Source of the DNA: Ostreococcus lucimarinus
Taxonomy: Eukaryota
Length of the DNA stretch: 64,000 nt
NCBI GenBank assembly: GCA_000092065.1
Contig: CP000582.1
Direction: 5' to 3' (one strand)
Shown: positions 20,514 to 52,606 of the stretch, one piece after another
How positions within the stretch are numbered: position 1 is the stretch's first letter
Layout of the letters: every line of letters starts with the position of its first letter
Translations under genes and position numbers: made by a program
Notes under the pieces: model-generated
What the model was told of the DNA's origin: nothing
The model's input: the letters and a program-made list of their open reading frames with translations, nothing else
Database searches by the model: none

Positions 20514-23258
20514 CTAGTCGTAGGTCTTCTTCAGATAGCTGATGATATCGACACTCTCGAATAACGAGATCCCGGTGTTCGGATCTTCAAGATAAGGTAC
20601 TTGAAATATACCGGTGCGATTGAGAAGCAAACTCCTTCTTGGGCTACCGCGTGCACATGGACGAAAAACATAAGAAATTCCCCGCTCGTTCAGAGCTTTT
20701 CGCACTAGAGCGCAAAATGGAGAAGCTTCGTAACCCCAAAAAATCAAAGGCTGCTCACCTGCACGTGAAGTACGCCGATGCGAAGCATCATTGATCTTTG
20801 ACGCTTGAGCGAACCTCTGAAACAATGAGACAAGAGAAGCTGGTTCTTCGCCATCCAGATACTCCTGATAGAGATACTGAATGATGCCGTCAGCACCTTT
20901 CACAGCGATGTCGTCGTTTCGATCATCTCGTAGGAAAGGGACTACTTCAGACCCAAGTTCAACACCCTGTAGAATCGCTAACTCGGAGCTATTCGAACAC
21001 GACGCGGTAGGACACGGTTTGCACAAGTAACTCACGTCACAAATACTCAAAACCTCTCGTACAAGCCGACAGGAGTCGTCATCCTCGACGTCATAAAGTG
21101 TCAGCGTTGGTGGAGCTGGCGTAGCGTCGGCACGTTCTTTGACTGCCTCTCTCAGACGGTGGCTACCAAGCTTGCTGACCTCCAAAAACCGTAGTCCAGC
21201 GCCTCTCACGAAAGCGTACTCTGTAACGTTTTCACGCGCGATGCGTGGGGACCAACCGTGTACAAACAGACCCAAAGCAACTCGAGAGAGCCCTTTCCAA
21301 ACAGCCTCGAGAAGCTCTCCTCGCTGCGACTGTTCGAAGGCAAACATCTTTGGCTCATTAACTTGAAAATTCGCACTGAGTGCTTCAAATGCTACTGCTG
21401 TGTCTTCAAATGTTGCACCTGGGTATTTTAGATCCGCCCGCCACATGCAATGAGCCCCATATGGCACTCTTTCGGGCAGAAGAATTGTTGCTACGGGACC
21501 AGCCTCTACATCTTGTGCATCAATTATGACGCACTCGGTGCGCCCATTAACGTCTGTTGCTGTATAGCTCTCATCATGAACGTACATAACTAACCAGCCA
21601 TCATCTTCATCTACACCTCCTGGTCTTCCAACAAACTGGGCTTCCATACCGTAACGGTTTGGACCATGCTCATAAGTGACCGTCTTCTGCTCTTGCATAT
21701 CAATTTTCACGACTGCGTCAAACTTGAGCTGAGTGGTCGATTCCAACTCTGACAAAAGGACTCGCCCGGCGTAGGCGTACCTGTTTCGCCTTCCAACAAA
21801 TGCGTCGTTGATGCGTGGGGTTTCTAAAGGAATACTAAATAGATATCTTTCTGTGACCTTTCCAGTGACAAGATTTATTCTCCATTCATGAACTTTTGGA
21901 ATCTTGCCAACTCGCACGGCCTCTTTGATCCACTCACTTGAACCGTTAGCGCGCATCGCCTCTTGGAAAAAGCCGTCTTCACGAATTCCAGTAATGACTA
22001 TCAACTGCTCATTCCTTTCATTTTTTTCCTCCCACGAATTGATGAAGTGGTATACCATTTGTGACGAGCTACAATTAAACCAAGTCACGCTTGTTGACTG
22101 TGCATCTCTATTCAACACTCCAAAACGCGCCCGCTTGTCTTCGTTATACTGAAGAGGGTGTTTCCCTAGCAACTGTCGAACAGGCTTGATATCCATGCTG
22201 CCTTCAAAAAGAACCGTAAAATGCTCAGTTACACAGAAATCGTGCATGAAAATGCTACCAACAAACGGGATAGACCAAAGCGAGTTGATGCTCGAGATTG
22301 TACCATCTGGCTTCAACGTACCCACAGAGCAATGTGGCGGTGAGACTGGATTGAAACCAAAGAAAATAAGTTCACCGGTTGACGGTAACACTTTTGGATG
22401 CGCAGTGAAAGGAACGTAAGGAGGTAGTTTGCCATCAAACGTACATGCTGAAATTGTTTCGAGGGTATCTGGATCAAGTTCCCAAGGCGGACAGGTATCC
22501 TGTAGCGCGAACGTCCTACCAGCAAAATGGAGAAGCGCCGTATTTGCACTGTCTTTCATAAACATTCCACCCGTGATGAGGTTGGAAAGTGCATTTGCCA
22601 GAAATGTTCCACCGTCAGCATTCATGAGTGGTCTAAATATGCGTTTTCCGCTTTCAATCTCACGCTTCCAGCTAGACGTCCGAATAAAACGATTTCTAAA
22701 TTTAACTCTGTTGCCAGTGCAAAAGTCTACAGCGTAGATCATACCATCACCCTCGAACCAATGATGCCAGCCTGATCCTAAACCAAAATCTACTTGCCCT
22801 GGACCTGCACCCCAACGCTTGTAGTGATCAACAGCAAACTTTGGATTGGGGCCTACGTACGCGTACTGACCGAGTGGAAAATCGCTTGGAATTTTACCGT
22901 TAATTTTCATCGTCGAAGAATCATCACCAGCTTGCGCATCATAATCGCAACAGGCCGTGACTTCCTGTCCTACCGGATAATAGTTTCCAGAAAGAAAAGC
23001 GGCACCATGTTCGCCGTATTCCACTGGATCTAGAAGTTGATACGACGTAGAAGCGGCGGCAGAAATATAGCCTGTATCCTCATCACTCGAAGGCTGAATT
23101 GAATCTATTTCTTGGATCGTTCTCGTAGACAAATCTGTTTCCGTTTGTACTCGAAGTATAGAGGACACACGCCTTGTCTGCAAACTAAGAAGACAGCTCT
23201 TGCGGCGGTATGTTTTATAGTAGCGCACAGGAGCGTTGTGTGCCGATAGTGAGCCCAT
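20514..23258 (-). CDS. Carotenoid cleavage dioxygenase (RPE65/CCD family) fused at its C-terminus to two GST-N/glutaredoxin-2-like thioredoxin-fold domains; N-terminal transit-peptide-like region.
   Basis: 914-aa ORF in the track. CCD-family features include FDGDGMIYAVDF, multiple conserved His/Glu-containing blades, and a FINSWEE-like segment. C-terminal TLYDVEDDDSCRLVREVL... and LIFWGYEASPFCALVRKALNERGISY...FQVPYLEDPNTGISLFESVDIISYL resemble GST N-terminal/Grx2 folds. Sits 256 bp upstream of the PKS start on the same strand. Confidence 0.7.
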   Translation of the reverse strand: MGSLSAHNAPVRYYKTYRRKSCLLSLQTRRVSSILRVQTETDLSTRTIQEIDSIQPSSDEDTGYISAAASTSYQLLDPVEYGEHGAAFLSGNYYPVGQEVTACCDYDAQAGDDSSTMKINGKIPSDFPLGQYAYVGPNPKFAVDHYKRWGAGPGQVDFGLGSGWHHWFEGDGMIYAVDFCTGNRVKFRNRFIRTSSWKREIESGKRIFRPLMNADGGTFLANALSNLITGGMFMKDSANTALLHFAGRTFALQDTCPPWELDPDTLETISACTFDGKLPPYVPFTAHPKVLPSTGELIFFGFNPVSPPHCSVGTLKPDGTISSINSLWSIPFVGSIFMHDFCVTEHFTVLFEGSMDIKPVRQLLGKHPLQYNEDKRARFGVLNRDAQSTSVTWFNCSSSQMVYHFINSWEEKNERNEQLIVITGIREDGFFQEAMRANGSSEWIKEAVRVGKIPKVHEWRINLVTGKVTERYLFSIPLETPRINDAFVGRRNRYAYAGRVLLSELESTTQLKFDAVVKIDMQEQKTVTYEHGPNRYGMEAQFVGRPGGVDEDDGWLVMYVHDESYTATDVNGRTECVIIDAQDVEAGPVATILLPERVPYGAHCMWRADLKYPGATFEDTAVAFEALSANFQVNEPKMFAFEQSQRGELLEAVWKGLSRVALGLFVHGWSPRIARENVTEYAFVRGAGLRFLEVSKLGSHRLREAVKERADATPAPPTLTLYDVEDDDSCRLVREVLSICDVSYLCKPCPTASCSNSSELAILQGVELGSEVVPFLRDDRNDDIAVKGADGIIQYLYQEYLDGEEPASLVSLFQRFAQASKINDASHRRTSRAGEQPLIFWGYEASPFCALVRKALNERGISYVFRPCARGSPRRSLLLNRTGIFQVPYLEDPNTGISLFESVDIISYLKKTYD

Positions 23259-27890: not shown

Positions 27891-30800
27891 GTTGTACTAG
27901 GGATTTCGAAAATAATGTATGAGGGTAAAATAGTGAATTTAATTAACCTCGACGTCTTGTCGCGCCGCTTCGCGCCGCGCGCGCGTCCGGGCGGCGCGGA
28001 GTCTACCGATCTTTCCGCGTATCGTGATATCCGACCGTTTAAGTTTGAATTCTGTGCGTGGGTGTTGACGGAACACGACCGTTGGAGCTCGATGGGCACG
28101 TTAACTTTTGGGCCAGATTCTGTCGCGTATGACGCCCCCTCGCGCGCGCCGAAGCGCGTCTCCGACCGTGTCGACGGCACGGAAAGGTTGTAAGAAGGCT
28201 TCTCAGCGATCTTCAGCCTCGCTGGGAGGAGCAGGGTCAACGACGGCTCCCGCTTGCGACGACGAAGATGGGCGCGCTCAAGTGGCCAAAGATGCTCGTG
28301 AGGTCGCCGTTTCTTTGCTCGCGAACAAACGTCGCCGGGAGGTTTCTGGCCAGGTAATGGCAAAAGTGACAGCTACGACGTTATTCCTCGACACCGTGAG
28401 CTTCAAAACAGAGTTGATAAAACAACACGCGTTCCTGAACCGCGTGAGGAAGCTGCTGAAAGACAAGGATGTGAAGCGAGACGCGCGCGCGTTGGTCACT
28501 GAAGAGTGCGCTTCGACATCAGATCAGTCCGAAAACACTGTGCACGTCACCGCTGATGTCGCACGCACACGCCGTGAAGAGCGGAGCCGAAATCCGCACC
28601 CCTTCTACGTCGAAGTAGTGCATGCATTAAGTCGCGGGGACATCTCGGCGACGCAGGCTGTCCATGAGTTGCAGCAGGTTGGCGTACGAGTCACCAAAGC
28701 GTTTTTGAAACGCGTGTGCACGGCTCAGTCGTTCCGGGATGACATTCCCCATTACTCCGAGTGCGAAGACGGCCGCGGCAGACCAAGTGCACTCAGCAAC
28801 GCATACTTGGACCAGCTCGCAAAAATTGTGAAGCATTACATTCGAGTTGGGATATCACTGAGTCAAGAGACGATTTTGTCGATGGCTAAAAACTTCTATC
28901 GCGACGAGCATCACGCAGATCCTTCTGATAAAACGTTCGGATCCGCGTGGTTCTATCGATTTCTCAATCGCCATGGCATTGACACTTCTCTGTACAATCC
29001 CCAGGATGCCTTGAGACTCAACGCCGCAACGGAGCACAACGTCAGCAATTACTACCAGCGCGTGGCCCAAACAGCAGTCAGTAATGGCTTCGCGACATGG
29101 AATGCCGACTTCGACGCGAACGATAGGAGTAGTGAGATGATCATTTGGAACGAAGAAAAGAAGAGCCGCGTGTTCACGTTCGACGAGGCGAAGGTGATGC
29201 TTGCCTATGAGAAAGGCGTGCGCGGAGTGAGAATGTTGGTCATCAAGGGCGAAGACAACCGCAGATCGGCTGTCACAGCGAACGATGCATTCGCAGCATC
29301 CGTCATGGGATGTAGAAACCTCGCTGGCGAGTCCTTGGCGCCTTACTTTGTGTGCACGACGCAGCCAAATGTCGAAGATGGTTTTGAAATCCCTGGAACT
29401 ATCACCGATACGACGACGGGTGCGTGCCAACAAGCCCAATGGATACGAGGAACGAAGAAGGGTTCATTCGACGGATTCGCATTCGCGACTTGGCTGAAGG
29501 ATCATCTCGCGCCGTGTGTTCCCGATTTGTCGCCGGAGAATCCGGCCATGGTGATTTGTGACGGATGTTATGCTCACACAGTCGACGAGGTGCTTGAGAT
29601 TTGTGCAGCAATGGGGATTCTCATGGTCATTCTGCCGCCTCATTGCACGCATATCCTGCAAGGCGAAGATTTGTACCACTTTGGTGTGTTTAAAGGTGCG
29701 TTTCGCGTCGAGCGTGCTGAAATCGAAGCGATGAAACAACTCGCCGCCGCGTGGTTCATCAAGCTCTTCGAGAACGGCGTCGCTACTTCTTTCGGACAGC
29801 GAGAGTTTTGGTACGCGGTTAAGGAGGCATGGAAAGGCGCTTGGACGAAACAGGCTGTCGAGAAAGGATTTAAAATGCAAGGATTGGTCCCTTTTAATCG
29901 AGCTCCACTCTGGAAAAACTTCCCGAACCATGAACGCAAGGAGCCGCAGCGCTCGACACCGGACAAGGAATCTCAAGTTGAAGCTGCCGAGCGGTGCGTT
30001 GAGCGCATGTCCATACCAGGAGCGCCCGGACTGCGAGTTATCGCACAATCTAGCGACTCGACATTCGATGTGACGTTTGATGGTAGTCCAGAGTCGTTCG
30101 CACGGGCGCCCCTGAACATGATGAAGCTGGACGAAGTGTACAAGAGCCTTGTTGAAAATCCGAGTAACCATAGTATGAACGACGAGCACTTGAACGTTAT
30201 GAAGCAGCTCATTCTCGAAAAGCAAGAAAACATCACAAAGAACATCGTGACGACGACCCGGAAACAGAGAAGTACACGCAGACACGATCGCTATGATGAA
30301 GCGACTGCTCCAGCCATGGCCCGCCTGCTCGCCGCTCGACAGAAGAGAGAGAAAACGAAGAAGAGAACGCACGACGCAGCTCAAGATGGATGCGACGCTC
30401 GGTTCAAGGACAACACGGATGATATTCAATTTCTTGCGGCGCTTCATAAACGCCTGGACGACAACGGATCACTCGAGAAATCTCTTACAAGAGCTGAACT
30501 CATGAAGGTGATGCGCGCGAAGCGAATTCCACTGCCACAAGGACCGACCGCTGATATCTTGAGAGATAAGTTGAAAGAGGTTGACGAGCGGCTCTATGAA
30601 GCAAACATAGAATGTACAAGAGTTGCGAACGCGCGGTGGCCCAAAAGAGCACGTCACGCGTCGTCAGTCGACGATGCAAACGTAAGGTGCGAGGTGAAGT
30701 ACCATCCAAGTGGCGTCCGAGTACAACTTATAACGGACTAAAAGAACACGTGAAAGACTCGAACACACAACCGGGCTGCAAATATCGATAGAAAACACTA

Positions 30801-42180: not shown

Positions 42181-45100
42181 TCACGATGAAGTGAGTTCGA
42201 CTGTGTCACGCGAAAATCGCAATTCTTGAAAAACATCACTTGGGTTTTCGTTTCCTCCAACTCCTGCGATGACAAAAGTAAAAGTGAAACGCTTCCGAGC
42301 AGGTGCAAGAAATTCAGAGTGCACACATGGAAACCAACTGCAGTCTCCTCCTAAACCCATTTGGAATGTATCTAAATGTACGTGAATACTGTCACTTCGC
42401 TGAAGATCGTGCTGGTGGTTGGCTCGCGCCAGTTCAGCGTCAGAGAAATTTGACGCATTGAAATTGAAATTCTCCTTGCTCGTGAACAAGCACTTATTTC
42501 CGCTTGCGGAAGATTCTAAAGCCAGCCAGCGCACTTCTTGGCGAGCACCATTATCACTTGGTACTATATATGGAACATGAAGATCGTCAACAGTTGCGGA
42601 GTGGCGACCCAGAAACGCAGAGGACTTTCTATCTAAATAATTTTCATGTGGACCAAGTCCAAGCCACTCAACTTGTTGCATGGTTGCTCGACATTGCATC
42701 AGAACTCCAATTCGAGGAAGAGGTGGTAAATGAGGTGATAAATCGAATGTGCAAGTAACATTTAGATGACCAGACGCCAAGACCGTGTAATGAGAGCAAA
42801 GACGACATACAGTTTTCTTTTGAGCAGTTCGAAGCACAAGCTTACTAGCACAATGAAATCTTCCGAAGTTGTCTACGAAAGTTTCGACAGCTTCTTCGTG
42901 CTCATGCAAAGTATCCAGTCCTGCTTTGGCCCATCGCTCGGCAAAAGAAAAAATCCAACCACCACTGTCATTGTCTGTTGGAGCTCGCCATAAACTCGCT
43001 ATCGGGCCTGATTGAATCAACATTTCGCCGCGAAATTGAAACTTCAATAATCTACCGGAAGCTGCATTGAAAACATATGTGCTGTCTTGCGAAGTGACCC
43101 AAATCGCATCACTCAAATGCTCTATATGAATTGCAGCTTCACTGTTCAAGCTTCCCGGAACAGGGACTTTTTGTTGCGGCAACATAAGCTGACACTTTGC
43201 AATACTCACACCTTCAGGTATCCAAGACTGATGTTTGATGAACGAAGCCGATACGTCAATCCACCATTCTCCAAACACAAACTGCTTCCTCTGGACAAGC
43301 TGCGCGAGAGATGATAGTGATGGGAATAACTGGGACCATTCGTAAGAAGTTTCTGCTCCCGGTTGAATGTGAAGTTTGCTAAATTGGCCTTTCTTAAGTA
43401 TGAAGCCACTATCGAGAATCACGCACCAGTCGAACTTCATACACTCGAGATTTGTAAAGTGATATCGATTTTCAACGATAATCTTATCTCCTTGTGCGCG
43501 TATCATCGTAGGTTGTTGGAGATACTTCACTTCTTCCATGGCAGGATGAGGCGAACGGTCTGGGAAGACCAACCCGTTGATACAAAACTGCTTATCGTTT
43601 GGTGAATCTCCAAAATCTCCGCCATAGCCCCAATGAATTCGCCCATTTGTTGAACAGTTTAATCCTTGATCGATAAGGTCCCATATGAACCCTCCTTGCG
43701 CACTACGGTTGCTCCGAAACACTTCCCAATATTTGGCGAGACCACCATTGCTATTTCCCATGGCATGAGAATACTCACACAAAATGACTGGTCGATCATC
43801 CATCTGTGATGCAAGATCTTGGCAAATCTTAGGTGTTGCATACATGGGACAAATAATATCGGTGCACTTTGTCTTGAAGCCACCACCTTCATATTGAATT
43901 GGACGGGTTTTGTCATTTTGTTTTACCCATGAATACATAGCAAAGTGAGCGCCGCCACAACCTGACTCATTGCCAAGTGACCAAATAATGATAGAGCAAT
44001 GATTTTTGTCGCGTTGTACCATGCGTGATACTCTGGACATGTATGCATTTCTCCATACAGGATCATTTGCTAGATATGGCGTCGAATGTAAGCCAAACTC
44101 AAACCCATGTGTCTCAATATTGGCCTCATCAATAACGTACAATCCGTATTCATCACACAACTCATAAAACCTCGGATGATTCGGATAATGTGAAGTGCGC
44201 ACTGCGTTGAAATTGTTACGTTTCATCAGCAAAATGTCCTCTATCATGAGCTTCTCCGATACCGCCTTTCCCTCTACAGGGCAGTGTTCATGTCTATTTA
44301 CTCCTTGAAAAGTGATTCGTTTTTCGTTCACTAATAGTTGTTTGTTGAAAATCTGGACAGTTCGAAAGCCTACTCTGCACCCTTCGCAGTCTAAACACTC
44401 TCCAGATTCACTCTCCAAAATAATGGCAAGTAGATAAAGCGTTGGACGCTCAGACGACCATTCTGCCACGTTGCTTATGTTGAAGCATACATTTGCATAT
44501 TGCCTAACTTCCTCTATGTTTTTTTCTTGCGTTGTACCAAAATCAGGTGAATAGTGTTGGATAAGAAACTTGTCCGTAGTTCCAGTAGATATTTCACGTA
44601 AGGAAGAATCAAAAAGACGAACACGAAGACGTTTATTGTCATTGTTGAAGTACGCATTGGCGGTGTCACAAATTTCAATCCCAACTCGAAGCTCCCATGT
44701 GCCTGACTGCCAATCACAACACTCTGTCTGCACGGAGTAATCGCAGATATGTGACGCTCTTTTACGATACAAATAAACATCTCTGAATATTCCACTGAGC
44801 CACCATTGATCTTGATCCTCTAAGTAACTACCATCGCACCATCGATAAACGCGGACCACCACCAAGTTAGTCCCGCTTTGCAAAGAATCTGATACGTCGA
44901 ATTCGGCGGTCATTTTGCTATCTTGAGAGTAACCGACAAGTTGACCATTGATCCATATATGAAACGCTGCATCGACCCCCTCAAACACGATGAAAGTCCT
45001 TTCATATGATTCATTCCAGTCCATATCTAGCTGGAAGGTTCGCCTGTACAGGCCCGTCGGATTTGTCGCGTGCACGCAGTTTTCACACAGAACACCAGCA

Positions 45101-45462
45101 TCAATACCTAGCTTAATAGACGTACGCGCGACTGGTGGATGCAATGGAAAAGGATATTGAAAGTTTGTGTAAATAGGTCGATCCCATCCTTTGCATTGCC
45201 AATTTGCAGGGACTGGAATCTCTGCCCAGAACGTGTCTGAGAAGTTTGACAGTGTAAATTCATCAGATATGGCGCGTGGATTCTTCAGAAGCTTGAACTT
45301 CCACGTGCCATTCAGGTTCTGAACGTTGGCTAAATTAATTCTCTCATTCCAGAGGCCTCCACCTTTCCAGAAAGATATACATTCGTCCACAGTTCTGAAA
45401 GAATATAAGGTGCAGTGACTTGGCCTAGGCATATTTAGCACACATATAGAAACAGTCGACAC
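42181..45462 (-). CDS. GH2 beta-galactosidase (LacZ-type), a single 1093-aa exon.
   Basis: GH2 signatures NAVRTSHYPNHPRFYELCDEYGLYVIDEANIETHGF, acid/base WSLGNESG, nucleophile region ILCEYSHAMGNS, YLEDQDQWWLSGIFRDVYLY, and a C-terminal Bgal_small_N-like region. No introns, although neighbouring genes are intron-rich. Confidence 0.85.
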   Translation of the reverse strand: MSTVSICVLNMPRPSHCTLYSFRTVDECISFWKGGGLWNERINLANVQNLNGTWKFKLLKNPRAISDEFTLSNFSDTFWAEIPVPANWQCKGWDRPIYTNFQYPFPLHPPVARTSIKLGIDAGVLCENCVHATNPTGLYRRTFQLDMDWNESYERTFIVFEGVDAAFHIWINGQLVGYSQDSKMTAEFDVSDSLQSGTNLVVVRVYRWCDGSYLEDQDQWWLSGIFRDVYLYRKRASHICDYSVQTECCDWQSGTWELRVGIEICDTANAYFNNDNKRLRVRLFDSSLREISTGTTDKFLIQHYSPDFGTTQEKNIEEVRQYANVCFNISNVAEWSSERPTLYLLAIILESESGECLDCEGCRVGFRTVQIFNKQLLVNEKRITFQGVNRHEHCPVEGKAVSEKLMIEDILLMKRNNFNAVRTSHYPNHPRFYELCDEYGLYVIDEANIETHGFEFGLHSTPYLANDPVWRNAYMSRVSRMVQRDKNHCSIIIWSLGNESGCGGAHFAMYSWVKQNDKTRPIQYEGGGFKTKCTDIICPMYATPKICQDLASQMDDRPVILCEYSHAMGNSNGGLAKYWEVFRSNRSAQGGFIWDLIDQGLNCSTNGRIHWGYGGDFGDSPNDKQFCINGLVFPDRSPHPAMEEVKYLQQPTMIRAQGDKIIVENRYHFTNLECMKFDWCVILDSGFILKKGQFSKLHIQPGAETSYEWSQLFPSLSSLAQLVQRKQFVFGEWWIDVSASFIKHQSWIPEGVSIAKCQLMLPQQKVPVPGSLNSEAAIHIEHLSDAIWVTSQDSTYVFNAASGRLLKFQFRGEMLIQSGPIASLWRAPTDNDSGGWIFSFAERWAKAGLDTLHEHEEAVETFVDNFGRFHCASKLVLRTAQKKTVCRLCSHYTVLASGHLNVTCTFDLSPHLPPLPRIGVLMQCRATMQQVEWLGLGPHENYLDRKSSAFLGRHSATVDDLHVPYIVPSDNGARQEVRWLALESSASGNKCLFTSKENFNFNASNFSDAELARANHQHDLQRSDSIHVHLDTFQMGLGGDCSWFPCVHSEFLAPARKRFTFTFVIAGVGGNENPSDVFQELRFSRDTVELTSS

Positions 45463-47129: not shown

Positions 47130-48648
47130 AAATTTGACAAAAAGGACATTGTTAAAATTATCAGGTTTCTACTTGAAGGTACTTTCACTTTGCAAGATGC
47201 ACTTGGTGGCTAAAAGTAGCCTAGGTAGCGCAAGTTTTTGCCACGAAAGCAGATCTACTACCAAAAGAATACGTTCACGCGCTCAGCTGCGTTCTTGATG
47301 ATTGCGCTCCGATGCCCGTCGGTGAGGTCAAGAGAGTGGTAGAGCGAGAATTAGGCGCTCCAATATCGAAGATTTTTCATCGATTTGACTTGCAACCGAT
47401 CGGCTCAGCCACTATTGCTCAAGTCCACCGCGCAGTCTTGCAAGACGGTCGACATGTCGCTGTAAAAGTACAAAATACTCGAAACAAAAAGCTGATGCGA
47501 TTTGATTTACGCAACATGCTTTTTGTTTCTCGGTTACTGGATCGACTTCGAGTATATCTTCCGTTCGATCATACAAGCATTTTAGTAGAATATTCCACAC
47601 AGGTACGCACAATACACCTGCAAGTATTAATGTTCAACTTAACGTCACCCAGGTACCTCTGGAATTTGATTTTAATAGGGAGAGACGCATGTTGAGCGTC
47701 CTAGGTCGTCGTATTAGCTCTAATCATAAAGTTCGTGTTCCAGCACCGATCGATGGACTCTGCACTGCTCAAGTGTTGACTATGACTTTGATTGAAGGCA
47801 AACCTTTAGCAACTTTTACGTCAGTCAGCTCAAAGAAAAATGTGGAGGGCAATCTTGATTATCTTAGAGACAATTTGAGGGAATTACTAGCAAGCTTTGG
47901 ATTTCAAATCTTGAACTTAGGTGTTTTTCACAGTGATCCCCATCCGGGCAATATTTTACTAAGAGATTTTCGAGACATTGCGCTGATAGATTTTGGTCAG
48001 GTGAAAATATTATCTGATGAAACACGAGTGCTGTTTGCGCATCTTGTCGTATCATTGTACGAAGAGTCGGATCAATTGTACGCAATATTAAAAACACTCA
48101 AAGTTGAGTTTACAATAAATGATCCAAAATTGATAAGGACCATAGCTTCAATTCTGTTTGATACACGCATGGATATACCCGAAGCACTCGTATCCCCACT
48201 AGATTCTGAATTTCCAGCGGAACTACGCAGTGTGAGAATAAATGTGATACCCACGGAGGTTTTCATGATTATTCGTATCATTGCTATATTTCGAGGCATC
48301 TTTTCAGCTTTGGATATCGATTTACATGCGAGGAAACTTTGGGTCAGCAGTGCACGACAAACAATTCTCGATTCCGAGCGTGTATATAACTTCAATATTC
48401 TAGCGACACCAAGAAATGAAGTGAACATCGTTGATCAGCTGAAGCATTTTAGTGCTTGGCTTGCCCTTCATGGCTTGCCTCACCAGAGGGAGTATATGAT
48501 GGCTTTTGCGAAGTTACATGTGTTTTGTATCAAAGATTTACGGAAACTTGCCGCAGAGAACGAGCGATCAGCACTTGATGCCGTATTCGCAAACTTCTCG
48601 GAACAGGATAGAAGCCGTTGTCTAAAACTTTGCTATGAGCATTCATGA
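47130..48648 (+). CDS. ABC1/ADCK (UbiB-family) atypical kinase, multi-exon (start approximate).
   Basis: Exons: ...KRTLLKLSGFYLK | VAQVFATKADLLPKEYVHALSCVLDDCAPMPVGEVKRVVERELGAPISKIFHRFDLQPIGSATIAQVHRAVLQDGRHVAVKVQ...LVEYSTQ | (50-nt intron 47606-47655) | VPLEFDFNRERRMLSVLG...HSDPHPGNILL...IALIDFGQVKIL. Confidence 0.7.
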
Positions 48649-49090
48649 AAGCGAATATCATAGTTCAACCTGTGTCTTCGTCGAGTACCAGGAGCACTTA
48701 TTCAACTTATTCAACCAAATTTTGGATTAACGTGAATCCCGACCGGGATACTTTAAAATAGTAATTACATTTTATTAGATCTTAAAAATCTCTCAATGCA
48801 GCAAATTTTCAGTTCAGGTGCCTGTGAATGTTTAATAAATAAAATAACACACGGGCGTGCCGTTCCTCAACACCCCCGCCAGTCGCCAGACACGCACATA
48901 TACCGAACTGATTCGAGCCGTCGAATGGTCACGTAAAGCACGCATATTGCAGAGTCCTACCGTTGTTCAACTTTTAACTAGAGTTCGCGATGGGTAAGTC
49001 CATCGCTCACGCCAGTCACTCCCACTTCAACTCATACATTTTTGTTACAATACAGGCATTAAGGAGGGTCTCTCCGAACTTTGGGATGAC

Positions 49091-50794
49091 TTGATGTCTT
49101 ATCGGACACTTAAGGTGGTCAAAATAAGCGATAGGCGCCTGGCCTATGTTCACAAGACGCTCATGGTGACGATTCTTGTGTACGCTCTCGTTTCAGTCAT
49201 CGGGGCCCACACGTACATGCTCAAGGAAAAGCCACGAGCATACATGTCTACCATATTCAATGATACAGTGAGAGATTTGAATCTCGCTGATAGTGCAATG
49301 CTCAATCAAATTTATTGCAACGCGTCATATTCGGACTTCGCTGGAGACTCACTTGTACCGGAAGGTTCATATTTAAATAACAGTTGCGTCACTCATATAC
49401 CGACAGCACAAATGGTTGAAACTGATGAGGTGGCTACGTTCATCGCGACGCATTTGAAGTCGAGAATGTTTACAAGATCGTGTGCAGATGCTTTGACCCA
49501 GGTCGGTTGCAGCATATCATATCAAACAGATGTTAATCAGTTCCCACTTGATCCAGACAACTTAATCCTGCAAATCCGGCCGCGTTTTGTTACGAGTTGG
49601 GGGTATAACGGCTATCCCGAATCGGTTGCTGTATTTGATCACACGTCGACAGCATTTCGAACATTTTACTCTAACGATGCGAATAACTCGGCGAAATTCC
49701 CGATTATGTACCTTCATGAGATCCTGCGATTAGCTGGTATCGAGCTGGACGAAAGAAACGAGATTGAAGTTTCGTCCGCTTTCGCCACGAATTTTCCCAT
49801 TTATCGGCTGACGGGCGTGCGATTGAGTGTTGACTTGACTTTTAGTAACTTTCGTCCGATGTCGCACTTCAAACCGTTCGATTTCAGTGCTGAAGCAGAT
49901 ATGAATATTCAACTGAGCAGTGAGGGAAGCTTTGTCACAAGCGTAGACATGGTGCATTTCTCCGGACCAGCATCAGATATCTCTGCAAGTGGAACTGTGA
50001 TGCAGTACAGAGGAGTGCAATTGGAGTATGGTGCAAAGGGTCTGATGGGCAAAGCTGACTTCTACACAGCAATGATGGCAATAATGAGCTGCTTCATTAT
50101 GGTCTCTGTCGCGACAACGGTTGTTGATATTATCGGTGCTTTTATCTACGATTCTTTCAAAGACGATAAAATAGAAGATGACGGTGAGCGACAGCATTTA
50201 GAGCACATGATTCTAAACTTGGAGACCGTTGGCGTGCCTTTCGGACACGACGACTTACAAATTCTACCAAATGTATCCATGAAGGAGTTCCTTCAGTTGC
50301 TTCAACGTGACATCGTCAAATTGAACGCTCTGGCGCACCACATGAGTCGTGATTTGGCAGCAGCAGGAGTAAATCAGCACACGGTATCAATCCAACAACC
50401 AACCAAGCATGCAAGTATGCCGAAGTATAAATGTAAACTTGTCGCACCCGATAGAACAGACGTTTACCTCACCGGTGGGCCTCAAACAATTGGACGTGGG
50501 CACGGTGGTTGTGAATCAAAGCGCATTTCACATAAGCAGCTAAGTATTATAGCGAATATTCAAACCGGCGTGGCTTTGGTGAAAGGTCTGCACACGAAGA
50601 ATGTGTCTGGTGTCGCTTTAGCCGGTGGTGCATGGCAGACGCTCGGCGCAAATGATGAAGTTGAGCTGGAGGCAGGTGATATGATAGCATTAATATTAGA
50701 CCAGAACGAAGAGGAGACAAGCGCAGAGGGTGTTTTCATTTACGCTGTCGAGAAATTCGAGGAAATAACGAGTAAGAGCTGGTTTAGTCTTTGA
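49091..50794 (+). CDS. P2X-receptor-like ATP-gated channel homologue with a C-terminal FHA-like extension.
   Basis: TM1-like region YRTLKVVKISDRRLAYVHKTLMVTILVYALVSVIGAHTYMLKEK. Cys-rich ectodomain with an NFR motif (FSNFRPM). Pre-TM2/TM2 GAKGLMGKADFYTAMMAIMSCFIMVSVATTVVDIIGAFIY resembles the P2X GTGGKFDIIPT...LCDII region. The C-terminal 150 aa (IGRGHGG...ISHKQLSI...GDMIAL) is FHA-like. Confidence 0.55.
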   Translation: MMSYRTLKVVKISDRRLAYVHKTLMVTILVYALVSVIGAHTYMLKEKPRAYMSTIFNDTVRDLNLADSAMLNQIYCNASYSDFAGDSLVPEGSYLNNSCVTHIPTAQMVETDEVATFIATHLKSRMFTRSCADALTQVGCSISYQTDVNQFPLDPDNLILQIRPRFVTSWGYNGYPESVAVFDHTSTAFRTFYSNDANNSAKFPIMYLHEILRLAGIELDERNEIEVSSAFATNFPIYRLTGVRLSVDLTFSNFRPMSHFKPFDFSAEADMNIQLSSEGSFVTSVDMVHFSGPASDISASGTVMQYRGVQLEYGAKGLMGKADFYTAMMAIMSCFIMVSVATTVVDIIGAFIYDSFKDDKIEDDGERQHLEHMILNLETVGVPFGHDDLQILPNVSMKEFLQLLQRDIVKLNALAHHMSRDLAAAGVNQHTVSIQQPTKHASMPKYKCKLVAPDRTDVYLTGGPQTIGRGHGGCESKRISHKQLSIIANIQTGVALVKGLHTKNVSGVALAGGAWQTLGANDEVELEAGDMIALILDQNEEETSAEGVFIYAVEKFEEITSKSWFSL

Positions 50795-51062: not shown

Positions 51063-52606
51063 TTACCTCGAGCCATGTGAGTGCCTCGCACATTTGAGCC
51101 TCATAAAATAGTCCTGCAGAGGTGTTAATCTAATCCTAACTACAAGCAGAAATAGAACACCTTCAACGTTCATTTCTGAATTCTTTTCCGCCTGGTACTC
51201 TTGCAAAAATGATAGCAAACTTTCATCGTAGAAGGAGTTCGTAGTTCGAAACAATTTCATTGTATCGAATCCACGATAATTTGGGCCGGCTAAATCAATG
51301 TCGATCAACTTTAGTGAAACGAAGGTATGAGGTGTAAGTAAGTGACTTCAACGTGAAGTTTATGGTGTACCTTGAAGTTTCGGTCCTGTTGGTAGATTAC
51401 GTTCGATGGCTTCAGGTCACCGTGACAGAAACAGATAGGTAAGTGAACGCTCTGGATATTTTGTGAGATACTATTGAATTTTGGACACTCATATACACGC
51501 CTTGAAGAAAGATTCCACTTTGAACACTTCATCCTCTAATTCCTAAAGCAATGTCAACTTGTCAACTTGAGCGACCACCAACTGGTACTTTGCGCTTTGC
51601 GCCGCACCTTGACCCCAACACCAGCGATCATGCCCCCCTTTGAAAATCTTAGTCTCATTAACATCCGGGGATTTCGACACTACCTCAAGTGGTCGCAACT
51701 GCATCAGCATTTGATGAAACCATTTCCATATGAGTGCCCGCTCACGTCCTTCACAAGTCAGGGGAAGTAAAGGTTTCAAGATCTCAAATGATTCACCCTC
51801 TACGTGCACTGAGTGCAGCCTACTTATTCTACGATATTGTGACAAAAGATTTAACATTCTTGTTCAAAGATTCGAGAGTGTGCTTACAATTTAGCAGTTG
51901 ACTTGCAGAACGAAAGTTCCTTCATATCTTCTTCTCGGAGAACTCGGCCATCCAAGTACTCAGTAACGATGATATCATCGGCGTGTGAAATATAATGCGG
52001 ACAAATGCCACGTTCTGCCAAAGTTTTATGCATCTCGATGCAACTGCGCGCTCTTGAGACAGTTGAAATGTACTGTGTACTTCACGCCTACCTCAGTAAG
52101 TCACAGCGCAGTTTTGACAACTTGCTGTACTTTTTTACTACAAAGGTTTCGCCTCCACATGAGACCTTGTGCAGATGTGAATTTTAGTTTTTAAATAATG
52201 TAGCGCCGTTTCGTATCGGATACCTTGAAAACTTGGTTGCAGAAGCCTTCTGTGAACTGTGCGCACTCGAGTCTAACAGAAAAAGTTTAGGTATTGAGAA
52301 TATCCAAGATCGGCGGCGGATATGAGTAACTTACTTCACCGAATGCTTGTAATTTAAAATACTTTTGATGGCGTCAACATCTTCCACACTTAGTGATGTT
52401 GCTACTTTTTTCGAGAAAGCAGTTGCGCTTGGACTCCGTCGAGTTTGTCGAACTTTGCAATAACTTGGTCGTTCCGGTCGGGAAAGGACGAAAGCATGCA
52501 TCACCCTCTCATGCAGGGGTATCAAGCATATCTTAACTTGCTCTAGTAGAGAGAAGCAAGTGCGAAACGCGTCGGCCTGTCCTGGGCATAGCCGGTCTCC
52601 CGGCAA
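51063..52606 (-). CDS. Choline/ethanolamine kinase, multi-exon span.
   Basis: Exon 51311-51532 has ...LPICFCHGDLKPSNVIYQ (Brenner phosphotransferase motif). Exon 51063-51308 has IDIDLAGPNYRGFD (choline kinase motif). Further upstream exons at 51543-51857 and about 52331-52606. Confidence 0.6.

Follow-up and report, generated by a model that had tools for sequence, protein, structure and literature searches.

A divergent P2X-like protein with a C-terminal FHA domain in Ostreococcus lucimarinus

P2X receptors are known from textbooks as channels gated by ATP, but little is understood of their cytosolic regulation. A stretch of 64,000 nucleotides from Ostreococcus lucimarinus (contig CP000582.1 of assembly GCA_000092065.1; hereafter the window) contains, on the plus strand, a 567-codon open reading frame (ORF) at positions 49091–50794, which a first-pass annotation made from the sequence alone had read as a P2X-like channel with a forkhead-associated (FHA)-like domain appended at its C terminus. 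The locus raises three questions: whether the protein is a P2X family member, whether it is still equipped to bind ATP and what an FHA domain could do on such a channel. What emerges as new is a subfamily of divergent P2X-fold proteins in which the domain architecture is new and the ligand site is probably altered. Residue numbers below (Y3, T5, R468 and so on) follow a 566-residue numbering of the protein; the AlphaFold model comprises 578 residues and the full product 580.

The P2X relationship becomes clear when profiles are compared. A profile of 17 orthologues (A1), run against 1.84 billion representative sequences, retrieved 363 proteins, among them P2X receptors that Pfam itself recognizes, such as the Dictyostelium firmibasis ‘P2X receptor’ (P0232; Pfam P2X E = 1e-20) and P0244 (Pfam E = 3e-23). 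The matches to these Pfam-recognized proteins, at E values of approximately 1e-10 to 1e-11, extend over profile positions 7–362, which is the entire channel module. Alignment of the family by hhalign with a canonical profile, consisting of 16 canonical-type P2X proteins and human P2X4 (hP2X4; the sequence used is identical to PDB 9bqh_A at 388/388 residues), gave a probability of 100% and E = 6.7e-46 in global mode over 332 columns (query 1–390 against hP2X4 2–388), and E = 2.5e-33 in local mode. The identity of the protein to the canonical profile is only about 17%, and searches of PDB sequences with phmmer (single sequence) and with hmmsearch (orthologue profile) returned no match.

Structure prediction leads to the same family. 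With the 17 close orthologues as input, AlphaFold gave an unusable model (predicted local distance difference test (pLDDT) score of 44.6), and distant relatives from an exhaustive hidden Markov model (HMM) search were needed; with the resulting deep alignment of 90 sequences (A3), AlphaFold2 reached a mean pLDDT of 89.0. This model has the fold of a P2X subunit, with two transmembrane (TM) helices and a β-rich ectodomain. In a Foldseek search against the PDB, the best 50 matches were all P2X structures, with P2X7 (8tr8 and 6u9v) at the top and E values of 8.9e-14 for rat P2X7, 2.6e-13 for human P2X4 and 2.9e-13 for human P2X3. The best match in the BFVD structure database was the ‘ATP P2X receptor’ of ChoanoV1 (A0A5B8IF04; 1.1e-29). 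The alignments, the retrieval of bona fide P2X receptors and the predicted structure together make it virtually certain that the protein is a P2X homologue with the P2X fold, as the first-pass annotation had claimed.

The channel module retains the features expected of a pore. Kyte–Doolittle hydropathy finds exactly two segments of TM length, residues 19–43 and 323–353, both of which are long helices in the AlphaFold model, in agreement with the two-helix topology on which the earlier reading depended. TM1 lies at 49148–49216 (helix 26–49 of the 578-residue model) and TM2, the pore helix, at 50060–50146; the N and C termini are predicted to be cytosolic, and all four N-x-S/T sequons of the protein lie between the two TM segments. 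Near the N terminus, YRTLK (Y3-R-T5-L-K7; 49100–49114) corresponds to the cytosolic YXTXK/R motif described for P2X receptors (PMC2397467): it is invariant in the orthologues, and Y3, T5 and K7 align with Y15, T17 and R19 of hP2X4 Y15-D-T-P-R19 at an alignment confidence of 9. The pre-TM2 motif GAKGLMGKAD (50030–50059) aligns with hP2X4 G325-K-A-G328-K-F-D331 at the same confidence, so that G316, G319, D322 and D345 pair with hP2X4 G325, G328, D331 and D354; G316 and G319 are nearly invariant among all 90 aligned P2X-like sequences. The segment GAKGLMGKADFY...VVDII, which the first reading had regarded as highly diagnostic, thus matches hP2X4 G325-K-A-G-K-F-D...D354 column for column at top confidence. 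Asp345 in TM2 (50126–50128) is invariant in the family and is the same residue in 16 of 17 canonical sequences; the equivalent Asp of rP2X2 (D349) has been discussed previously, together with its replacement by Asn in the Ostreococcus tauri receptor OtP2X (PMC2397467). TM2 is followed at 50147–50191 by YDSFK, a YXXXK motif in which Y352 and K356 align with hP2X4 Y367 and K371, and then by an acidic juxtamembrane segment, DDKIEDDGER, the pattern of which (D-D-K-x-E-D-D-G-E-R) is retained even by distant FHA-bearing paralogues.

The ectodomain (49217–50059), extracellular or luminal and of P2X fold, is a different matter. It had been described as Cys-rich and contains only 4 cysteines in 281 residues (C75, C98, C130 and C139), compared with 10 conserved cysteines, forming five disulfides, in vertebrate P2X receptors; C75 and C98 are common to protist P2X proteins. 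An ‘NFR’ string, which had been offered as a further P2X clue, is present at residues 252–254 (49847–49855). Its counterparts in the alignments are the protist P2X motif ‘YSN’ and hP2X4 Y274-S-F-R-R (the S275-F-R277 region), and we rejected it as the NFR of the ATP site because the alignments place it off hP2X4 N293-F-R295.

The residues that coordinate ATP are known from the zfP2X4–ATP structure as K70, K72, T189, N296, R298 and K316 (PMC4460280), equivalent to hP2X4 K67, K69, T186, N293, R295 and K313. In our alignments this set is not conserved. K67 pairs with I54 (I, T, S or D in the family; confidence 7/9), K69 with N56 (N, D or S; a weakly aligned position), T186 with I158 (confidence 9/9; Thr in Bathycoccus-like orthologues and in some paralogues) and K313 with Q304 (Q, K, E, G or S; confidence 9/9). 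N293 and R295 fall either on N271 and Q273 (N271-I-Q273) or on S279 and V281 (S279-F-V281), again in a weakly aligned region, and neither candidate offers a conserved base. The usual ATP-binding residues therefore appear to have been lost, making ATP gating doubtful, and we consider ATP an unlikely, although possible, agonist. Because the coordinating residues are not conserved in the alignment, the ‘purinergic’ label given earlier is unsupported, and we refer to a P2X-like or P2X-fold channel rather than to a purinoceptor.

Past TM2, the protein continues for 215 residues, made up of a conserved helical linker of about 80 residues, a variable spacer of 13, an FHA domain of 112 and an end of 11. 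The first-pass annotation had correctly sensed FHA-like features in this tail and put the extra domain at about 150 residues, a figure that falls short of the tail as measured. In the AlphaFold model, residues 444–555 (50423–50758) form a β-sandwich of FHA fold with pLDDT values of 90–94, and its closest structural neighbours are FHA domains of the aprataxin/APLF/PNKP type, the subclass to which we assign it. A profile of the domain (A2), built from 17 diverse members of which some are only 17–28% identical within the domain, matched APLF (E = 2.2e-5) and PNKP (7e-4 to 2e-3) in the PDB, as well as Rv0020c, Vps64, aprataxin, CHFR and RNF8; FHA domains account for 13 of the 19 matches listed, including the first 13. 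With profile and fold in agreement, there is little room for doubt that the tail holds an FHA domain.

The positions that remain constant in this domain are those that handle phosphate. Invariant residues of A2 (G32, G37-R38-G39, S49 and Q52) correspond to G462, G467-R468-G469, S479 and Q482 of the protein, and the Asp of a GD pair is invariant or nearly so. In the alignment of A2 with PDB sequences, R468, S479 and H480 fall on APLF Arg27, Ser39 and Arg40, the trio that grips phosphothreonine (pThr); Asn60 in the β6–β7 loop is a further pThr-binding residue (PMC4655838). G467-R468-G469 (50492–50500), which carries the pThr-binding Arg of the β3–β4 loop, is invariant in 17 of 17 diverse members, and S479-H480-K481-Q482 (50528–50539) represents the SRxQ/SRxH motif (APLF Ser39-Arg40 and PNKP Ser47-Arg48), with S and Q invariant; the Gln is what PNKP has where classical FHA domains have His. 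K476 aligns with APLF Lys36 and PNKP Arg44, residues that help to recognize additional phospho or acidic groups (PMC4655838), and N503 is invariant in close orthologues and not in distant paralogues. That exactly the phosphate-binding residues are conserved speaks for a functional phospho-reader; on these residues, phospho-dependent binding is fairly probable. The coupling to phospho-threonine signalling that had been suggested is thus reasonable as a prediction from the invariant pThr-binding Arg and Ser. Two threonines of the protein itself were also considered as FHA ligands and dropped: T542 (E-E-E-T542-S-A-E), inside the FHA domain, begins the last β-strand in the model, and its motif is absent from distant paralogues; T378 of the linker is not conserved in paralogues.

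The linker between pore and FHA domain (50192–50383; AlphaFold helices 375–390 and 408–435) contains a heptad helix, residues 396–423 (50279–50362), in which the a and d positions L400, L403, I407, L410, A414, M417 and L421 follow a 3-4 pattern and are essentially invariant. Among orthologues, YDSFK-DDKIEDDGER and about 65 residues after it hardly vary, and a G-V-P-F motif in the tail persists in distant paralogues. We infer from the heptads that this helix could form a three-helix coiled-coil stalk under the pore. At the other side of the FHA domain, the short C-terminal end (50759–50791) is variable in sequence, has low pLDDT and closes with the aromatic and hydrophobic residues SWFSL. Homologue C termini in A1 and A2 always close with such a patch (SWFSL, SWFSW, GWFNWW or AFSWL), and one group of paralogues has FFSILGC or LLGC there, so that Cys is the last residue. 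The patch might serve as a membrane-anchoring or lipidation signal.

Conservation along the protein is uneven, with invariant columns making up 67% of the N terminus and TM1, 62% of TM2, 67% of the linker, 46% of the FHA domain and 18% of the ectodomain. That the ectodomain is far less conserved than the cytosolic parts fits control from the cytosolic side. We hypothesize that the protein forms a trimeric cation channel of P2X fold, the tail FHA domains of which dock on phosphorylated partners, and we hold this to be reasonably probable. Each subunit of the trimer, the assembly of all P2X channels, would consist of a short cytosolic N terminus with YXTXK, TM1, an ectodomain of about 280 residues that could be glycosylated, a pore-lining TM2 with its Asp and the cytosolic tail, in which YXXXK and the acidic segment would be followed by the linker as a three-helix stalk under the pore and by the FHA domain at the end. 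The three FHA domains, positioned under the membrane, would recognize phosphorylated Thr motifs in one partner protein or several. Such targets would probably be acidic, CK2-type pS/pT motifs because of the FHA subclass and the basic surface around K476 and R477. Kinase signalling from the cytosolic side could then set the position, assembly or gating of the channel, and the luminal or extracellular ligand may be something other than ATP because the basic ATP-coordinating residues are not conserved. The trimer, the stalk, phosphopeptide binding, the identity of the ligand and the membrane in which the protein resides are all predictions in this scheme. A bolder form of it, which we regard as speculative and rather unlikely, is that the channel is no longer driven by ATP and that three stalk-held FHA domains engage a phosphorylated partner, or else the phosphorylated Thr of the protein’s own YXTXK motif, such that opening or placement would read the activity of a kinase such as CK2.

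Several observations weigh against the proposal of a P2X-fold channel with an altered ligand site and a functional FHA reader. A significant match to the Pfam P2X model had been suggested as the check on P2X identity, and the protein does not give one: PF00864 (P2X_receptor) reaches 14.8 bits (E = 0.015) over residues 3–43 only, below its gathering cutoff of 27, and the 17 orthologues yield weak matches in 15 cases (best E = 2.3e-4). We judge this check too blunt, and we uphold P2X membership despite the sub-threshold score because the profile and structure methods are decisive. For the tail, Pfam FHA_2 (PF17913) scores 12.8 bits (E = 0.12) against a cutoff of 23.1, with a best E value of 0.012 in 5 of 17 members, and the classical Pfam FHA model (PF00498) has no match in the protein. 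Position 480 is His in close orthologues, leaving the third residue of the pThr pocket as something other than Arg, and is Arg in distant paralogues. The alignments behind the apparent loss of the ATP site are confident at K67, T186 and K313 but weak at K69 and at N293/R295, and an invariant Arg306, on the same strand as the K313 equivalent and two residues from it, could substitute for the missing Lys. Finally, the Dictyostelium P2X receptors are also very divergent, and DdP2XA functions without any of the ten conserved cysteines (PMC3853471).

The points on the ligand site would suit an ordinary ATP-gated P2X receptor with a pocket re-shaped as in Dictyostelium, responding to luminal or extracellular ATP, and carrying its FHA tail merely as an aid to trafficking or regulation, in the manner of the P2X7 ballast. 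This is possible, but in our view doubtful. The P2X fold has been kept, as have the pore motifs, OtP2X of the sister species is ATP-gated (PMC2397467), and DdP2XA is an example of a channel that works without the conserved cysteines. There are also bases near the position of K313, namely R306 in the close orthologues and, in distant paralogues, an Arg at G-4, and the pattern N-[LVI]-x-hydrophobic-hydrophobic-x-[KR] resembles NFT..K, with N-V-T in Bathycoccus-like orthologues. Yet K67, K69 and K313 each align with a varied set of residues, neither NFR candidate has a conserved base and no other part of the protein is as poorly conserved as the ectodomain. OtP2X, moreover, keeps the equivalents of both key lysines, K69 and K308, so the FHA-tailed family is clearly the more derived of the two.

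Other alternatives concern what the FHA domain reads. It could recognize the channel’s own phosphorylated T5 (Y-R-T-L-K-V) and so act as an intra- or inter-subunit latch on gating or desensitization. This Thr is invariant and forms part of TX(K/R), the kinase consensus that is classical for P2X receptors, the N terminus and the FHA domain are predicted to be on the same side of the membrane, and the pT+3 residue is Val, as many FHA domains prefer at that position. Aprataxin-family FHA domains, however, take acidic pS-pT-D/E motifs through basic surfaces (PMC4655838), whereas the surroundings of T5 are themselves basic (R, K and K), and we consider such a latch improbable. The pocket could alternatively hold a small diphosphate ligand, for example an ADP-ribose derivative, which would make the tail a cytosolic sensor of nucleotide metabolites. 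The FHA domains of APTX (R29/R42) and PNKP (R35/R48), the type to which the tail domain is structurally closest, bind iso-ADP-ribose through the same Arg pair (PMC3759693), but the second Arg is His480 in the close orthologue group, iso-ADP-ribose binding is known only from nuclear poly(ADP-ribose) signalling and nothing at this locus independently hints at it; we rate this idea as highly improbable. Finally, the missing ATP-site residues and the cytosolic peak of conservation could point to a P2X-derived pseudo-channel, a non-conducting membrane scaffold that anchors an FHA adaptor. The conservation of TM2, with its pore Asp, and of the gate-proximal G-x-x-G-K-x-D motif is hard to explain without pore function, for which reason we disfavour the scaffold and give it very little credence. 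A P2X-fold channel with FHA domains that dock on phosphorylated partners is the interpretation that we carry forward.

OtP2X (O. tauri, 387 residues; Fountain et al. 2008, PMC2397467) is the closest characterized channel, and shares with the window protein the genus, the P2X fold, two TM segments and the YXTXK motif. It is ATP-gated, about 28% identical to human P2X receptors and retains 8 of the 10 cysteines and the Lys69 and Lys308 equivalents, whereas the window protein has about 17% identity to the canonical profile, 4 cysteines, none of the ATP-binding lysines and the long FHA tail. Conversely, OtP2X has Asn in place of the TM2 Asp, YESWL in place of YXXXK and no long tail, whereas the window protein keeps both Asp and YXXXK. 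The window protein belongs to a separate paralogous family and is not the orthologue of OtP2X. For OtP2X, evidence for a plasma-membrane response to ATP in intact cells is lacking, and a role in endomembranes is possible for both proteins. The intracellular DdP2XA–E of the Dictyostelium contractile vacuole demonstrate that a P2X channel can function in an endomembrane, its ectodomain turned towards the lumen. They have the ectodomain motifs ‘R..G......YSN’ and ‘PYC’ in common with the window family, and differ in their length of about 380 residues, short tails, ATP gating, retained NFT and x-F-K motifs and lack of an FHA domain.

In design, the nearest analogue is vertebrate P2X7, in which a folded cytosolic C-terminal ballast adds regulation; its ATP site is complete, and the ballast is said, in the paper on the 6u9v structure, to be a Zn- and GDP-binding domain unrelated to FHA. 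The FHA domains that occur in aprataxin, APLF and PNKP are N-terminal parts of soluble nuclear enzymes of DNA repair that bind CK2-phosphorylated XRCC1 and XRCC4 (PMC4655838), whereas that of the window protein serves as C-terminal module in a membrane channel and has His at the Arg40/Arg48 position.

How widespread is this architecture? We found 301 homologues at E ≤ 1e-3. Orthologues with 54–83% identity are plentiful in marine metagenomes, and the named ones include an ‘FHA domain-containing protein’ of Ostreococcus mediterraneus (76%) and an ‘uncharacterized’ protein of Micromonas pusilla (54%). The full architecture of P2X-like module, acidic motif, helical linker and GRG...SRxQ FHA domain also occurs in the much more distant P0127, P0131, P0132, P0134, P0140, P0149, P0152, P0153 and P0156. 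The named clusters with FHA-bearing paralogues include sequences of Mantoniella beaufortii (Mamiellales) and Crustomastix stigmatica (Dolichomastigales), and several environmental lineages have them as well. Because the full architecture occurs in such distant paralogous lineages, the P2X–FHA fusion is old within the Mamiellophyceae and has diversified into paralogues. A neighbour-joining tree with bootstrap did not recover the FHA-bearing proteins as one clade, a result that carries no information because the distances are saturated and several of the sequences are truncated fragments.

Some relatives carry other tails. Among environmental and MMETSP sequences, a P2X-like channel is joined to an AIR9 A9 Ig-like domain in P0138, P0141, P0154 and P0185, and to an EF-hand and a (double) zinc ribbon in P0212. 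The family profile matches these AIR9- and EF-hand-tailed relatives over the channel module at E values of 1e-43 to 1e-12. P0146 clusters with a Crustomastix sequence, which places one differently tailed relative in the same class. The variety of tails suggests that protist P2X-like channels are modular, with swappable cytosolic C-terminal tails. Viruses also encode P2X proteins: all five Bathycoccus prasinoviruses are reported to have a P2X receptor (PMC8528832), and that of the giant virus ChoanoV1 is matched by our model at E = 1e-29. When IMG/VR was scanned with the family motifs, no FHA-bearing version turned up among viruses.

The ORF at 49091–50794 that had been taken as the gene is real, but its beginning is not that of the coding sequence. 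The TTG at 49091 was rejected as a start because it is an internal Leu codon. Exon 1 (48990–48993, plus strand) consists of the true start codon, the ATG at 48990, and one G; a 62-nucleotide intron (48994–49055; GT...AG, GTAAGT...ACAG) follows and, once it is excised, MGIKEGLSELWDDL-MSYRT reads as it does in orthologues P0005 and P0008; and exon 2 (49056–50794) includes the stop codon (50792–50794). The spliced product is identical, over 580 of 580 residues, to P0326 (XP_001416144.1, ABO94437.1 or UniProt A4RT33), for which the database name is only ‘conserved protein [Ostreococcus lucimarinus CCE9901]’. P0328, a protein derived from an MMETSP transcript, has the same N terminus as the spliced product and differs from it at 5 residues. 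Given the identical database protein and the transcript, the gene is real and expressed, and was already in databases without a functional name.

The window has a G+C content of 43–54%, its genes are interrupted by frame changes or short introns, and the neighbours are eukaryotic, with genes for an ABC1 kinase, GH2 β-galactosidase, DEAD helicase, RPE65-like oxygenase, ChlI and Timeless. The low G+C content and the introns fit what we take to be the low-GC, intron-rich ‘outlier’ part of Ostreococcus chromosome 2. Directly upstream on the same strand, the ABC1 atypical kinase (47312–48648) is spread over two overlapping ORFs in different frames (47312–47695 and 47689–48648), presumably owing to a short intron. 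Just downstream, on the minus strand (51063–51857), short ORFs with a weak APH/choline-kinase-like match (‘HGDLKPSN’) are probably parts of one multi-exon phosphotransferase gene. Farther away, the minus strand encodes a complete LacZ-type GH2 β-galactosidase of 1,093 residues with all five domains in a single unbroken ORF (42181–45462), and an unusual-looking fusion of 914 residues (20514–23258) in which an RPE65/carotenoid-oxygenase domain (E = 1e-107) is followed by the N-terminal, thioredoxin-like domain of a GST. An 877-residue ORF on the plus strand (28108–30741), in the stretch of locally highest G+C content (0.52–0.54), has a Tc5 transposase helix-turn-helix and a DDE_1 endonuclease domain and is a pogo/Tc5-like transposase.

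The databases list the protein and its orthologues as ‘conserved protein’, ‘uncharacterized’ or ‘FHA domain-containing protein’, so standard annotation has missed their P2X identity. A full-text search of the literature for P2X receptors together with FHA or forkhead-associated domains found no relevant paper and, to our knowledge, no P2X member apart from P2X7 has a folded signalling domain. O. tauri can be transformed. The P2X receptor of that species has already been expressed in HEK293 cells (PMC2397467). If channel opening or placement were indeed governed by FHA docking, this would be the first P2X-superfamily ion channel with a hard-wired link to phospho-threonine signalling, and what the N-terminal Thr of P2X receptors does, a matter of long debate, would have its natural experiment. 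The combination, in Mamiellophyceae, of a P2X-fold pore with a predicted pThr reader and apparently without the ATP-site residues widens the uses to which the P2X fold can be put. Taken with the relatives that have AIR9 or EF-hand tails, it suggests that P2X-like channels of protists are signalling devices of modular build.

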